In this document: in pieces, positions 58,369-63,639 of the stretch
Position numbering within the stretch: position 1 is the first letter of the stretch
Layout of the letters: every line of letters starts with the position of its first letter
Assembly (NCBI GenBank): GCA_963846585.1
Contig: CAWJWO010000002.1
Coordinates: 199,592 to 263,591, forward strand
Length of the DNA: 64,000 nt
Source of the DNA: an uncultured Bacteroidota bacterium
Lineage (GTDB): Bacteria; Bacteroidota; Bacteroidia; Bacteroidales; JAAUTT01
Direction: 5' to 3'
Translations under genes and position numbers: made by a program
The notes under the pieces: model-generated
Databases searched by the model: none
Told to the model about the DNA's origin: nothing
What the model saw: the letters and a program-made list of their open reading frames with translations, nothing else

Positions 58369-58749
58369 TTAAAATAACCTTAACTGAGTTATATGTTTAG
58401 GATAAAAGGTACCAATTATTATAAAAGGATTTTTTTTTAAAACGATCTTCCTTCTTTCAAACCATGCATCACCATCAGGCGGAATATTACCAATAACGTT
58501 AATAGGGGTGTCATGAGAAACAGACCGAAAACTTTCAAGCCGCTTATCCTTTGGATTTTTAATCAAGTCTATTTTAATCCATTCATATTTAGAATATTGC
58601 TCATGATATAATTTCTTACGAAATTGGATTGGATAAATTCGAATCCAGGTTCCATCCTAACGAAAGCCTGCAGTGCAAACAATTTCTTCATATTTTGTTG
58701 AAATTGTAGGGTAGGTTTTAACAGTTATCAGGACTTTGGTTAAGGGCAT
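58369..58749 (-). pseudogene. Truncated hypothetical gene with an in-frame TAG (58657-58659).
   Basis: Minus-strand translation from ATG 58749: MPLTKVLITVKTYPTISTKYEEIVCTAGFR*DGTWIRIYPIQFRKKLYHEQ... runs in frame into the called 65-aa ORF. Confidence 0.5.
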
Positions 58750-58750
58750 A

Positions 58751-59567
58751 TTAAATATGTTTCAATTGGTATTTAAAGCCTGGTAACCTGGATAGTGACT
58801 CAGCTAAATGTTTCCTGTGACATTGATTTATATTTGCCTCAAAACATGTTAATGCGATTCGTTTTTTATCTTTTAATAATACTAACAATTTTTCCTGTAT
58901 ACTCAATGTTTGTTGTAAAACATCGACATGATATGATTTAAACAAATTGTCATAATCAATTTGAGTATATAATTCTTGCCGTTTGTCAGAGTCAATCCCA
59001 AATTCCGGAATATGTAAATATTTAATATTAACACCTTCACAAGCTTTTTGTAATTGTGATTTACTAAATCCATATTTCATGCTAACAAGAGTTTTTACGT
59101 ACATCACAAAGAACTTTAATATTGTTTTTAATAAGTTTATTTAAGTATTCTTCTAAGGACGTACCCTCGTAACCAATAGTATATAAACCAGTATCATTAT
59201 ATTTTGGCTGTGCTTCCAATATTCTTTGATATTCATCCTGGTTAAGTATATCTTTAGCTATAGTGCTATTGATAGCCAAATAAGGGAAATTTATATAAGT
59301 GTATTTTATTAACTCATCAGTATTTTTACTTCCAAATTGTAACTTAATATATCGAATAGCTTGCATGGCCCTTTCTTTAAGACTTGATAAGAAATTTGCA
59401 TGATCTATTTTTACCCAGCTATTACCATCAACTGCAACTTGATTATATTTAGTCATTGTAGTTAAATCAGCATTTGCCTGGAAAGAAAAACAACCAAACT
59501 TATAAGGAATAAAATAATAATCAGGGTTAAGCTGTTGATTAACAGTTAACATTAATAGTTTTTGCAA
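58751..59567 (-). pseudogene. DUF488-family protein with an extra N-terminal domain, split by a frameshift in a homopolymer.
   Basis: LYTIGYEGTSLEEYLNKLIKNNIKVLCDVRKNS (end of the 161-aa ORF) plus SMKYGFSKSQL...LTCFEANINQCHRKHL (118-aa ORF) form one DUF488 pattern. The frames join at the T5 run 59092-59096. Confidence 0.6.
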
Positions 59568-59632
59568 CCTAATTTTTTCAAGTATGTTTTCGAAAACCTC
59601 TAAAAGAGCTAATATTAATTTACGCCTTTAAT

Positions 59633-59933
59633 ACATATTACAAAAATATGAAATTGTGCGGATATTTTAATAGTTATTTATATTAGTTAATTGATTAATA
59701 ATCGCCTTAGTAACGCAATCCTTTATACTTATATTAGAATCCAACGATTTTAGTTTAATCTTTTTCATTAACGATTTTGGAATCCAAACATTCAATTGAA
59801 CTTCTGCTTCCATATTCCCTACCGGGAATATACGGCGATCCCGTTTTGGAGGTGCTAAAATCGAAAAGCAACCTGACGGTTTTTGTCTTTTCAATCGTCG
59901 CTTATGAAAGTAAACTTTCATCGCTTGATTTAA
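59633..59933. repeat. 301-bp direct repeat, copy A (downstream flank of the group II intron). Contains an intact 84-aa ORF.
   Basis: Identical to 61848-62148 except for one mismatch (59927 g vs 62142 t). Confidence 0.9.
59667..59921 (-). CDS. Small putative ribbon-helix-helix protein (copy A).
   Basis: The segment VQLNVWIPKSLMKKIKLKSLDSNISIKDCVTKAIINQL fits a beta-strand/helix/helix RHH pattern. The internal Met (MEAEVQ) may be the true start. Confidence 0.35.
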   Translation of the reverse strand: MKVYFHKRRLKRQKPSGCFSILAPPKRDRRIFPVGNMEAEVQLNVWIPKSLMKKIKLKSLDSNISIKDCVTKAIINQLTNINNY

Positions 59934-61847
59934 TCGAGTAGGAGAAACGGGATTAATTCCCGTTTCGACCTCTCACACCACCGTACGTACCGTTCGGTAT
60001 ACGGCGGTTTCTTAATTTACACAGTGTACTTTCACGTAATAGGCAGAGAAGAAAATAAATCCTGTACTCAAAAGCCTTTCAGTAGTTATGCTTCTATGCA
60101 GTATAGGACTATCGGCAGTATGCCAGTATCCTTTCCTTGTATTGGCAAACACAAAGGCTTTAGGTCTGGGAATACCAAGTTTAATCAGGTTGCTAATTTT
60201 GGTTCTGGTACGTTTCCATTGTTTCCATATCAGTGCCCTTAATCGTCGCCTAAACCATTCATCAATACGTAATAGAAGAATTTTCATGTCTGCAAGTTTG
60301 AAGTAGTTCAACCATCCTGTGATGTACTGTTTAAGTGCTTCTTTCCTGCGTTCATTTCCCCACCCGTTACTTCTTGATGTTAGTTCCCTGATTTTCCCTT
60401 TCATTTTCTCCACACTCTTTTGGTGAATGCGGATATGGCAACTATCTTTGGTAAAGTAAAACCCATACCCTAAGAATTTAACGTCTTTAATATGGGCTAC
60501 TACCGTTTTATCGCGATTTACTTTTAGGTACAATTTTTCTTCTATGTATTTTGTGATTCCAGAGAGTATCCTTTGGGATGCTCGTCTGCTTCTGCAAAAT
60601 ATCATACAATCATCGGCGTACCTTACAAACCTGTGCCCCCGCTTTTCCAGTTCCTTATCCAGTTCGTTGAGCATTATGTTGCTCAATAACGGACTTAGGT
60701 TGCCTCCCTGCGGTACTCCCATTGGTGTATCTTTATATACACCTTGTGTCATTACACCTGCTCTAAGGTATTTATGTATTAGCGATACAACTCTGCCATC
60801 TTTTATTGTTCTGGAAAGAACTTCTATAAGTTTACTTTGATTAACTTTATCAAAGAACTTTTCCAAATCCATATCCACTACATACCGATAGCCTTCGTTA
60901 GCATTCTTCTGACATTGCCTTATAGCTTGATGGGCACTGCGCTTTGGTCGGAATCCGTAACTGGTAGCTGAGAATTGTCTTTCGTAAATCGGCGACATTT
61001 GTTGTGCCACTGCTTGCTGGATTACTCTGTCTGCTACCGTGGGGATGCCCAGTTGCCGTTTATTCCCGTTCTCCTTTGGTATTTCTACCCTTCTGACCGG
61101 TTGTGGCATGTACTTCCCCTCGTGTAAAGCTGTTATTAATCCCTCTCTATGGGTTTGAAGGTGTTTTAATAAGTCCTCCATTTGCATCCCATCAACTCCT
61201 CCACTCCCCTTATTCCGCCTTACTTGTTTGTAAGCTTCATTTAGGTTGGTTGGAGATAGAATAAACTCTAACAGCCTTGGCCGTGCTGTGTTGGTGTCTT
61301 CTTTTTCATTCATCCATAAGAATGTCTGCCCTTCAACATCTCCTTCGAGTACCGCTCTATCTATCCGTTGACAGGTGTCATTATCCGTTTTCTGCTTTCC
61401 ATCATTCATAAGGTAAATTTCATTTGATGCTCACCTCTTAAGATTCGGCCCTTCGTTCTTTTGTGAGTCTTCCTCTTTTCTATATCGGCTCGTTACCTTT
61501 AACTACTATGGCCTCTGCTGACTCCTGACAGTAATTGTTATCCGTGTTTCATACTCCGTTTCCGCACGTCTGTCAGGTCTCCCTTGGTAAACTTATTCCC
61601 CTTCATCCCATGTAACCGCTACATTTACACTCCAGTATCCGGGTAGTTATTGGACTTCAATTTGTTTTGCAATCTCGTCCTACTGGATATGCCTGATGTA
61701 GTTCGTATTCCTCGGTTCAGGACTTTGCCTCCAGCTTCCTTCAGATTCCACTTCGCAATGGACACCCTTGCTCTTGGCTAATGGTTGGTAACTACCGACC
61801 CCCATAAAGGACTCTCACCTTCAAGGTAATAGGTGCGCAAGGCGCAC
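59934..61847 (-). mobile_element. Group II intron (~1.9 kb, no endonuclease domain in the IEP; possibly bacterial class C-like).
   Basis: The 5' end is GTGCGCC on the minus strand at 61847. Domain V-like GCCGTATACCGAACGGTACGTACGG lies at ~59980-60010. A domain VI-like hairpin with a bulged A (..CTCCTACTCGAT) ends at ~59934. Contains an RT/maturase ORF. Confidence 0.8.
60012..61409 (-). CDS. Group II intron reverse transcriptase/maturase.
   Basis: RT motifs RRVEIPKENGNKRQLGIPTVADRVIQ, YVVDMDLEKFFD, GVPQGGNLSPLLSN and VRYADDCMIF, plus an X/maturase region. No HNH domain at the C-terminus. Confidence 0.9.
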   Translation of the reverse strand: MNDGKQKTDNDTCQRIDRAVLEGDVEGQTFLWMNEKEDTNTARPRLLEFILSPTNLNEAYKQVRRNKGSGGVDGMQMEDLLKHLQTHREGLITALHEGKYMPQPVRRVEIPKENGNKRQLGIPTVADRVIQQAVAQQMSPIYERQFSATSYGFRPKRSAHQAIRQCQKNANEGYRYVVDMDLEKFFDKVNQSKLIEVLSRTIKDGRVVSLIHKYLRAGVMTQGVYKDTPMGVPQGGNLSPLLSNIMLNELDKELEKRGHRFVRYADDCMIFCRSRRASQRILSGITKYIEEKLYLKVNRDKTVVAHIKDVKFLGYGFYFTKDSCHIRIHQKSVEKMKGKIRELTSRSNGWGNERRKEALKQYITGWLNYFKLADMKILLLRIDEWFRRRLRALIWKQWKRTRTKISNLIKLGIPRPKAFVFANTRKGYWHTADSPILHRSITTERLLSTGFIFFSAYYVKVHCVN

Positions 61848-62148
61848 ACATATTACAAAAATATGAAATTGTGCGGATATTTTAATAGTTATTTATATTA
61901 GTTAATTGATTAATAATCGCCTTAGTAACGCAATCCTTTATACTTATATTAGAATCCAACGATTTTAGTTTAATCTTTTTCATTAACGATTTTGGAATCC
62001 AAACATTCAATTGAACTTCTGCTTCCATATTCCCTACCGGGAATATACGGCGATCCCGTTTTGGAGGTGCTAAAATCGAAAAGCAACCTGACGGTTTTTG
62101 TCTTTTCAATCGTCGCTTATGAAAGTAAACTTTCATCGCTTTATTTAA
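61848..62148. repeat. 301-bp direct repeat, copy B (upstream flank of the intron). Contains the identical 84-aa ORF at 61882-62136.
   Basis: See copy A. Confidence 0.9.
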
Positions 62149-62176
62149 AAGACAAACCCCGCATTCGCGGGGTTGC
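62147..62176 (-). terminator. Rho-independent terminator downstream of tRNA-Ser.
   Basis: Minus strand: AACCCCGCGAATGCGGGGTT followed by TGTCTTTT. Confidence 0.7.
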
Positions 62177-62188
62177 TTTTTCGATTTG

Positions 62189-62276
62189 CGGAGAGTTAGG
62201 GATTCGAACCCTAGAAGCCCTTTTGAAGCTTACACACTTTCCAGGCGTGCGCCTTAGACCACTCGGCCAACTCTCC
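62189..62276 (-). tRNA. tRNA-Ser (anticodon GGA), class II with a long variable arm.
   Basis: Manual fold of GGAGAGTTGGCCGAGTGGTCTAAGGCGCACGCCTGGAAAGTGTGTAAGCTTCAAAAGGGCTTCTAGGGTTCGAATCCCTAACTCTCCG. It has a 7-bp acceptor stem, anticodon stem CACGC/GTGTG, loop CTGGAAA, T-arm TAGGG-TTCGAAT-CCCTA and discriminator G. No encoded CCA. Confidence 0.9.
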
Positions 62277-62280
62277 CTTT

Positions 62281-62560
62281 TAGTTGTTAGTTGCTGGTTG
62301 TTGGTTGTTGGTTGTTAGTTGTTAGTAAAAAGTGATTAAGTTTATAAGGTTTATAAAAGTTTATAAGGTTTATAAAAGTTACCTGAATACCATAAACTTT
62401 ATAAACACTATAAACTTGATAAACAAATAAACGCATAAACCCTAATAAAATCAATTGTAAATTTTCAAATTTGCACATTTTCAAATTTTCAAATTCTTTC
62501 ATCTTTTATCTGTCTTTCTTCTGCCTTCTGTCTTCTGTCTTCTGTTTTCTGTCTTCTTAC
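62281..62560. repeat. Mosaic of five different short tandem repeats between ansA and tRNA-Ser.
   Basis: Blocks: (gttgtta/g)n at ~62281-62327; (gtttataa[a/g])n at ~62339-62385; ataaac-spaced block at ~62395-62450; (attttcaa)n at ~62459-62497; (tcttctg)n at ~62513-62558. Confidence 0.85.
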
Positions 62561-62598
62561 ACTCCTGCCGAAATTACGAAATTATTTCATTTTACCTG

Positions 62599-63639
62599 TC
62601 AATTGACAGTTATTTCTCCGCATATGGAAGTATTAAGCCGGGATATTATTTCATCACGTGATAACTTTTGCCCTAACAGGAACATCAGTTTACTGATTGC
62701 TGCTTCGGTTGTAATATCATACCCGCCAATAACTCCCACTTTTAATAATGCTTCGCTTGTATGATATCTGCCCATTTCAACGCTACCGGTATTGCATTGT
62801 GTTGCATTTAATACTATAACACCTTTCCTGATAATTTCTGCTATTTCATCTATTAACCAGGATTGATTAGGTGCATTGCCCGCTCCGAAAGATTCAAAGA
62901 TAAGGCCTTTCAACCCGGGAGTATGCAATATCGAATAAACAGATTCCTTATTTATTCCCGGAAATATTTTAAGAATTGAAATGTTATTGTCTAATTTGGT
63001 ATGCACCCTGAAAGGCCTTGTTAATGGTACATAACTTATAGCGGCAAAGTTATATTTTATATGCACTCCAACCTGCGCAAGAGGTGGATGGTTGTGCGAA
63101 TGGAATGCATTAAAGAATTCGGCACTGTTTTTTGTTACCCTGTTACCCCTGAATAACCTGTTTTCAAAATAAACACATACTTCAGGCACAACCGGTTCAT
63201 GATTTTGTTCAGCACTTGCAATTTCAATTGCAGTAAGCAGGTTCTCGCGACCATCTGAACGACGAGTTCCGATTGGAAGTTGAGCTCCCGTAAAAATAAC
63301 GGGCTTATGAAGGTTTTCCAGCATAAAACTCAACGCGGATGCTGAATAGGCCATAGTATCAGTACCATGAAGAATAACAAAACCGTTGAACTTTTTATAA
63401 TTATCACTTATAATATTTGCCATTGTTACCCAATCATCAGGAGTTATGTCAGAAGAATCCAGGGGCACATCAAATTGAATTGTTGATATTTTACTGTCAA
63501 AGCGCTTAAGTTCAGGTACTTTAGTTTCAATCAGCTTGAAATTAAAAGGTTCAAATACACCTGTTTCACGATTTTGAACCATACCAATAGTCCCACCTGT
63601 ATATATGATCAGTATTGATTTCCGCTTTTCAGGTTTCAT
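62599..63639 (-). CDS. ansA: L-asparaginase, type I.
   Basis: ILIIYTGGTIGM N-terminal signature, HGTDTMAYSA; 346 aa. Confidence 0.8.
   Translation of the reverse strand: MKPEKRKSILIIYTGGTIGMVQNRETGVFEPFNFKLIETKVPELKRFDSKISTIQFDVPLDSSDITPDDWVTMANIISDNYKKFNGFVILHGTDTMAYSASALSFMLENLHKPVIFTGAQLPIGTRRSDGRENLLTAIEIASAEQNHEPVVPEVCVYFENRLFRGNRVTKNSAEFFNAFHSHNHPPLAQVGVHIKYNFAAISYVPLTRPFRVHTKLDNNISILKIFPGINKESVYSILHTPGLKGLIFESFGAGNAPNQSWLIDEIAEIIRKGVIVLNATQCNTGSVEMGRYHTSEALLKVGVIGGYDITTEAAISKLMFLLGQKLSRDEIISRLNTSICGEITVN

Follow-up and report, generated by a model that had tools for sequence, protein, structure and literature searches.

A class C group II intron between two copies of its 3' exon beside a tRNA-Ser gene of an uncultured Bacteroidales bacterium

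Layout of the repeat locus

We examined a stretch of 64,000 nucleotides from an uncultured Bacteroidota bacterium of the order Bacteroidales (assembly GCA_963846585.1, contig CAWJWO010000002.1, positions 199,592 to 263,591), here called the window, in which a group II intron lies between two direct repeats downstream of a tRNA-Ser gene. The locus is read on the minus strand, and its parts are named T (the tRNA-Ser terminator), I (the intron), S2 and S1 (the upstream and downstream repeat copies) and D (a DUF488 gene), giving the order T-S2-I-S1-D. As shown below, the join between the end of S2 and the intron is the sole novel, non-cognate one of the four junctions of this locus. The features needed for the argument are the following.

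62188..62276, minus strand: tRNA-Ser(GGA) gene (ARAGORN; Rfam tRNA 55 bits)
62148..62174, minus strand: terminator, hairpin 62174-62155 plus a 7-nt T-rich tail (terminator scan; fold -15.7 to -16.3 kcal/mol)
61848..62147, minus strand: S2, the upstream repeat copy, now the non-cognate adjacent 5' exon of the intron (repeat search, blastn)
59933..61847, minus strand: class C group II intron of 1915 nt, 5' GTGCGCC at 61847, 3' ..CTCGAT at 59933 (Rfam and homology to relatives)
61665..61668, minus strand: exon-binding site 1 (EBS1, AAAA), the loop bases of a conserved domain I hairpin, TTGC-NNNN-CAAA (covariation with the 5' exon end)
60012..61409, minus strand: intron-encoded protein of 465 aa, reverse transcriptase (RT) plus maturase with a YADD motif and without an endonuclease domain (Pfam RVT_1 1e-42, GIIM 1e-18)
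59933..60009, minus strand: domains V and VI, bulged A 7 nt from the 3' end (RF00029 44 bits; fold -39.1 kcal/mol, z -6.1)
59633..59932, minus strand: S1, the downstream repeat copy and 3' exon of the intron, holding only the 3' two-thirds of the element E described below (repeat search, blastn; partial covariance-model match 81 bits)

The repeat search of the window returned direct repeats at 59633-59932 and 61848-62147, 300 nt each with a spacing of 2215, which blastn aligns at 99.667% over 300 with a single mismatch (59927 g, 62142 t). The near-perfect repeats of 301 bp around a group II intron, as claimed in the original prediction from which this analysis started, are thus 300 nt plus one shared base: the extra matching base (59933/62148) pairs the final T of the intron with the final T of the terminator tail, and is a coincidence. 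An identity of 99.7% over 300 nt is far beyond chance, and since the copies differ at 1 of 300 positions the duplication is recent. The claim that the 3' flank of the intron equals the sequence that follows the terminator tail holds as well, save for that one mismatch. The genome from which the window comes (G000; 20 contigs, 98.5% complete) contains two copies of S and one full intron.

We considered whether this arrangement could be an assembly error, in which T-S-D would coexist with a separate circular or tandem unit of S plus intron, or in which a longer S-I-S-I-S array would have been collapsed. The 300-nt repeat exceeds short-read length, bridging reads are lacking (the only material is soil-metagenome contigs at 2-4x), and a plain T-S arrangement exists somewhere, according to contigs of two soil metagenomes. 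However, the S2-end|intron join contains no overlap able to mislead an assembler, and the copies differ at a base 6 nt from the junction. A mixture of T-S-D and T-I-S-D strains cannot yield the join either, neither having that junction; because strain mixing cannot produce it, it must be real DNA. The contig is long, none of the 20 contigs of the genome carries an alternative junction, and both versions of the error would still require the same unusual join of the S end to the intron. We regard such an error as very unlikely; the exact S-I-S copy number, as opposed to a longer array or a circle, comes from the assembly and is provisional.

The soil-metagenome contigs hold exact pieces of the intron, which weigh neither for nor against S-I-S. 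Two runs of one study have a contig that extends without branching from the tRNA 172 nt into S and has the S1-type base at 62142. One X3 contig departs from S1 7 nt beyond its end into unlike sequence.

The intron, its boundaries and its class

Rfam models matched domains I to IV of the intron at 139 and 39 bits and domains V and VI (RF00029) at 44 bits, the last match ending at 59933, and the 5' end reads GTGCG (consensus tested: GUGYG). Searched at the level of the order, 85 of 300 other genomes sampled contained related introns. Relatives with unrelated flanks all start with GTGCGCC or GTGTGCC and all end with ..CCTACYCGAT followed by T, and because they share both ends, the intron extends from 61847 to 59933. 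This agrees with the boundaries drawn in the original prediction and places S outside the ribozyme; the possibility that S is part of the intron, which that prediction had also named, is ruled out by the same comparison.

The intron-encoded protein matches RVT_1 and GIIM alone in Pfam, with about 60 aa of C-terminus beyond GIIM. More specifically, phmmer searches against PDB entries, on whose bit scores the class grouping rests, gave 432 bits for the class C RT 7uim, 406 bits for 6ar1 (GsI-IIC) and 328 bits for 5hhl/5hhj, compared with 160 bits for LtrA (class IIA) and 135 bits for 6me0 (class IIB). From these sequence comparisons we assign the intron to class C, on account of its best RT matches, its combination of RT and maturase without endonuclease, and the target rule of its lineage; the same class had been expected in the original prediction, and the RT scores (406-432 bits against 160 and 135) confirm it. 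The first three paired bases of domain V are CGC, not AGC; CGC at this place would be a mark of class C. In having an RT with maturase but no endonuclease, and a small ribozyme, the intron is the same as B.h.I1 of Bacillus halodurans, GsI-IIC and the Eubacterium rectale intron (PDB 7uim).

Some further observations were made on the intron family. The first 15 nt of the intron (61833-61847, minus strand) form a hairpin that is kept in L046, the closest relative at the intron 5' end, by a compensatory change (GUGUGC with GCACAC); the other relatives have no such 5'-end hairpin. An intron relative of 685 nt without an ORF (open reading frame) lies behind a tRNA terminator in another genome (L023 1477-2161, G100); it shares its last 84 nt with the window intron at 99% identity but domain I at only 73%, a mosaic suggesting that intron lineages of different genera have recently exchanged sequence or recombined. 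Elsewhere in its own genome, there is a relic of about 100 nt of a related intron RT (G000:C15:618392-618493, L002/L010; 88% DNA identity, 74% protein identity over 34 aa), and two further, more distant group II RT genes (33% identity) are found on contigs C1 and C8.

Target rules of the lineage and misfit of this copy

Insertion in sense orientation a few nucleotides downstream of a terminator or other stem-loop is published class C behaviour (PMC4424553; PMC1702495), and the 5' exon is recognized by 3-4 bp between intron-binding site 1 (IBS1) and EBS1 (PMC1702495) and the 3' exon by IBS3 at position +1. The lineage of the window intron follows these rules. The 45 nt upstream of the intron form a hairpin of -12 to -32 kcal/mol, ending 0-9 nt before the intron, in 11 of 12 relatives. 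On the domain I alignment, the loop at 61665..61668 and the final 4 nt of the 5' exon were compared in 9 relatives, and 32 of 36 positions were complementary; with exons permuted among introns the mean was 20.2 (sd 2.4) and none of 20000 permutations reached 32. Because this covariation with the 5' exon beats all permutations, the loop is EBS1. The +1 base is T in all six relatives for which a 3' end is available. The lineage is thus the same as known class C introns in its 4-bp EBS1-IBS1 pairing with +1 recognition and in its sense-oriented position 0-9 nt behind terminator hairpins. Two relatives stand outside the target rule: L027 (G285) abuts a hairpin without a tail and has an EBS1 match of 1/4, and L025 (G270) has a good IBS1 (TTTT) with a weak hairpin (-6.3 kcal/mol).

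Unlike known class C introns, the copy in the window lies 300 nt from the terminator with a copy of its own 3' exon in between, and its adjacent 5' exon fits EBS1 poorly. The 45 nt of the adjacent flank (the S2 end) fold at -2.4 kcal/mol (z -0.04 against shuffles) with a hairpin tail of 1 nt, and the last 4 nt, ATGT, make 2 of 4 pairs with EBS1 AAAA; the +1 base is T. The 5' flank had been called anomalous in the original prediction, and indeed it has no real hairpin and half of the pairing. At the tRNA-Ser terminator site, the upstream 45 nt fold at -16.3 kcal/mol, the hairpin tail is 7 nt, the +1 base is T, and the last 4 nt, CTTT, pair with EBS1 at 3 of 4 positions, the three nearest the junction. 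The window copy therefore lacks the stem-loop adjacency that its lineage shows and the site 300 nt upstream offers, and this lack is a matter of the present context of the copy, not of the intron class.

The insertion point predicted by these rules falls between 62148 and 62147, and S begins exactly there. Because the start of S is the expected landing point of a class C intron, an independent duplication would have no reason to start there. This bears on the idea that an S-S tandem arose first by illegitimate recombination and that the intron then inserted at S-end|S-start. Such a junction would have the right base, T, at +1, and a small AT hairpin would lie one nucleotide upstream of it, but the junction pairs with EBS1 at only 2 of 4 positions and has no GC-rich stem, and a better site 300 nt upstream in the same genome is empty. 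It also leaves unexplained why the duplicate starts at the canonical insertion point, 7 nt behind the hairpin. We consider this order of events very improbable.

Junctions and the order of events

The four junctions of T-S2-I-S1-D differ in kind. T|S2 is native because it is continuous in every copy of E, a structured element that spans the tRNA trailer, the terminator and the beginning of S2 and that is described below. S1|D reflects ancestral contiguity because a relative, G012, has the same junction uninterrupted. The intron|S1 junction is the cognate class C 3' junction. What remains is S2-end|intron, where the join falls precisely on intron nucleotide 1 with no microhomology between the two sides. 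An exact, microhomology-free join is expected when the partner is an RNA or cDNA end, and the exactness at nucleotide 1 points to a reaction at the terminus of the intron RNA or cDNA, or to reverse splicing. Most likely, the intron first sat at T|S, giving T-I-S-D, and the second copy of S was joined later.

A cognate insertion would also remain the first step if intron plus S had been tandemly duplicated to T-I-S-I-S-D and the first intron then lost precisely, for which a route through spliced cDNA is conceivable. A breakpoint exactly at intron nucleotide 1 goes unexplained by this, an additional, rare precise deletion is needed, and there is no second intron copy or relic at the locus; we hold this possibility to be extremely slight.

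By blastn, flanking repeats were found in none of the four relatives with both flanks, which makes the repeat a one-off accident and not a family trait. At 300 nt the repeat is far too long for a target-site duplication, and nothing of the kind was generated at the insertions of these four relatives.

Considering the exactness of the join, the rearrangement was probably made by the machinery of the intron itself. We propose a history of two events, in which the order of events and the joining mechanism are the parts that we infer. The class C intron would have homed to a target of its usual kind, a few nucleotides past the tRNA-Ser(GGA) terminator hairpin, giving T-I-S-D. In a second, recent and intron-linked event, a further copy of the first 300 nt of the 3' exon would have been joined by its 3' end to intron nucleotide 1, giving T-S2-I-S1-D and restoring an unbroken T-E junction beside the tRNA. 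This second event could be an aberrant completion of retrohoming into an intron-free T|S site, such as that of the sister chromosome at a replication fork. The S exon would first be ligated to the 3' end of the intron, the RT would then copy the intron up to its 5' end and make an end-to-end switch to a nucleic-acid 3' end located 300 nt into the downstream exon, and S would finally be copied back into T, where homology to T would close the event.

The individual reactions have precedents. Class C introns self-splice by hydrolysis to a linear intron (PMC1702495); linear intron RNA ligates its 3' end only and leaves the upstream joining of the cDNA end to error-prone routes (PMC3280974, section 9); and group II RTs, on reaching the intron 5' end, pass without a seam to the 3' end of an RNA or DNA (PMC3280974, section 9; bioRxiv 10.1101/792986 for a class C RT). 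A selective rationale is possible, in that S2 would restore an intact E at the tRNA gene with the intron retained.

Several points weigh against this history. The T-I-S-D allele was not found in exact-pattern scans of genome and metagenome contig collections; the search for alternative alleles suggested in the original prediction was carried out in this form, with the intron 5' end and an S-internal 24-mer as patterns, and gave no matches. The pairing of the terminator site with EBS1 is imperfect (3/4). No feature marks the end of S as a natural 3' terminus, and the acceptor 3' end is ad hoc. S ends one base past the start codon of gene D and 31 nt after the stop codon of a gene for a ribbon-helix-helix (RHH)-like protein, and a transcript end is not expected at such a place. 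Extra A residues, which are frequent at template-switch junctions, are absent at S2|intron. The soil-metagenome contigs never bridge S2|intron or intron|S1. Taken as a whole, we give the aberrant completion of retrohoming an even chance of being the right account. The end of S was also tried as a transcript 3' end or terminator and found no support, its fold being no better than shuffles and the boundary lying one base past the D start codon.

The main rival is unequal homologous recombination inside the intron between a T-I-S-D allele and an ectopic T-S-I-D allele, which would also produce T-S-I-S-D. Both exact intron junctions would then be explained by known chemistry. DNA-level exon shuffling between intron copies is reported (PMC7947834), intron lineages do recombine, as the 99% and 73% identities of L023 illustrate, and class C recognition is short, 3-4 bp plus a stem-loop (PMC1702495). 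The ectopic S-end|D site, however, fails all three determinants measured (EBS1 2/4, hairpin -2.4 kcal/mol, +1 A against T in all relatives), two insertions are required with both alleles in one cell, and an intron-3'|D junction is absent from the assembly and from the metagenome contigs examined. We judge this recombination unlikely. It is one of three scenarios put forward in the original prediction, and it keeps some standing in spite of a target site that fails three determinants; insertion into an S-S junction is disfavoured, and duplication of intron plus S leaves the exact join unexplained. A fourth, single-event route, the aberrant retrohoming set out above, fits at least as well as recombination between alleles.

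Comparison with known systems and possible consequence for splicing

Precise 3' junctions at a cognate site are also seen in work on retrohoming of a IIA intron in Drosophila embryos and in vitro. Unlike here, the junctions in that work had short additions or deletions and there was no 300-nt duplication of the downstream exon. To our knowledge, a duplication of 300 nt of downstream exon by retrohoming has not been shown in bacteria, and a search of the literature for direct repeats or a tandem duplication around group II introns turned up nothing comparable from bacteria. The locus is also like intron-mediated exon shuffling and intron circles with mRNA fragments (LaRoche-Johnston et al., PMC6248898 and PMC7947834), where an exon is joined exactly at the intron boundaries; an intron with an exon fragment attached, once circularly permuted, has the order intron-3'/S/intron-5'. 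The products described there were either RNAs or chimeras of genes at two intron-bearing loci, whereas the present case is a chromosomal tandem duplication, in DNA, of the intron's own 3' exon.

The arrangement may affect splicing. The 5' exon motif that fits best in a T-S2-I-S1 transcript combines a strong stem-loop with CTTT (or, one base farther along, TTTT) and is found 300 nt upstream of the ribozyme. Judged by these motifs, the intron may splice poorly or may remove S2 together with itself. B.h.I1 uses non-adjacent (cryptic) 5' splice sites 72-76 nt upstream as 5' exons in vitro (Toor et al. 2006, PMC1702495); these distant sites were used in protein-free reactions only, and splicing was accurate in vivo (PMC1702495). 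The T-S2 site is like the cryptic sites of B.h.I1 in being an upstream, non-adjacent stem-loop with an IBS1 motif, and unlike them in lying 300 nt away and in being known from DNA alone. If the distant cognate 5' site were used, S2 would effectively be part of the intron, S2 and intron being excised as one and T ligated to S1. We think this improbable; if true, it would be the first distant 5' splice site in vivo for a class C intron, and a natural route for an intron to acquire and move 300 nt of cargo. In any event, the locus is a ready substrate for the choice of a class C intron between a distant cognate and an adjacent poor 5' exon in vivo.

When group II introns move, their flanks are considered to stay unrearranged; this intron sits at the novel junction of a duplication of its own 3' exon. 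If made by the intron RT or ribozyme, the locus would be a natural bacterial case of retroelement-driven duplication of flanking DNA, and a wild example of 5' junctions made by template switching or end joining, which have until now been observed in vitro and in injected embryos. As a single case with a copy number taken from the assembly, it carries limited weight.

Content of the repeat: a gene remnant next to a decayed gene D

The following rows describe the open reading frames in S and the gene beside it.

61882..62136, minus strand: 84-aa ORF, copy 2, chimeric, RHH-like homology only at 62019-61882 (alignment to G012)
59667..59921, minus strand: 84-aa ORF, copy 1, RHH-like homology only at 59804-59667 (alignment to G012)
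59628..59636, minus strand: start of the decayed gene D, ATG TAT TAA, with the S1/D boundary after ATG+T (G012 comparison)
58751..59567, minus strand: remains of gene D, ORFs of 161 aa and 118 aa, DUF488 in the second (ORF list, Pfam)

Each repeat had been said in the original prediction to contain a complete small ORF for a putative RHH-like regulator or antitoxin, and this description is not supported. Only about 46 C-terminal codons of the 84-aa ORF (residues ~38-84) align with an 85-aa RHH-like protein of G012, and the first ~36 codons read through the non-coding E. The 84-aa ORF had no match in Pfam at E<=0.01, and its full-length 85-aa relative in G012 scored 17.2 bits with CopG_antitoxin, below the cutoff of 28 bits. 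As far as the alignments go, the duplicated content is a 5'-truncated remnant of an RHH gene plus part of E, and not a gene cassette, which is a modest correction to the view that a regulator gene was duplicated.

In G012 the gene order is parA-type ATPase, 85-aa RHH-like protein and intact 294-aa DUF488 protein, and the sequence across the S end and D is uninterrupted. In the window, codon 3 of gene D is a stop and the gene is split again farther along; the G012 copy (L012 1501-2385, minus strand) starts at the same ATG and is intact. The island beside the tRNA-Ser gene resembles what is left of a plasmid-like or integrative element that had a partition module and has lost parA and the 5' end of the RHH gene; the island around the locus is decaying. 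The S repeats were considered as attachment (att) sites of an integrative element and rejected, as the repeat begins at the intron target, 40 nt downstream of the tRNA 3' end and outside the tRNA core. A -7 box of the Bacteroidota type, without a -33 box, was seen by eye 8 nt upstream of the S end, and might make S2 an intron promoter.

Content of the repeat: the tRNA-linked element E

62036..62192, minus strand: intact copy of E, about 157 nt, consisting of the tRNA trailer and terminator and the first ~112 nt of S2 (alignment, fold, covariance model 140.6 bits)
Other copies of E: L005 1458-1614; L014, L016, L019, L017, L018 (G012); L055 (G035); L056 (G021); L057 (G001)

E folds into a four-way junction; the terminator hairpin makes up one arm, and the tRNA trailer pairs with a distal arm. 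The single-sequence fold is -52.4 kcal/mol (z -6.4), and RNAalifold found double compensatory changes in 25 of 52 pairs. A covariance-model search detected E in 10 of 61 genomes (G000 and 60 relatives), and a cmscan of 58500-63000 against Rfam 15 (E<=1) gave nothing credible. E lies directly 3' of tRNA-Ser(TGA) in the same genome as the intron, and after tRNA-Ser (GGA, GCT, TGA) and tRNA-Val in G012; a native, uninterrupted E, the same as at the T|S2 junction, is present at six other tRNA loci.

Judging from the structure of its copies, E looks like a miniature element integrating at tRNA 3' ends, or a relic of an att site. In the tRNA-Val-linked copy of G012 (L017), the last 17 nt repeat the tRNA 3' end, and a near-identical orphan copy for which no tRNA was called (L018, G012) has the same 17-nt motif at both ends. 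In G035, three complete units of E stand head to tail after tRNA-Val(GAC), each ending in a copy of the tRNA 3' end, and in the Ser-linked copies a T-arm-like hairpin is all that remains of this 3'-end copy. After the orthologous tRNA-Ser(GGA) of G012 (L014 1569-2166), the 3' end of E is amplified in a tandem array with periods of 77 nt and 63 nt (3.8 and 5.9 copies, 95-99% matches) and a GC-rich hairpin in each unit.

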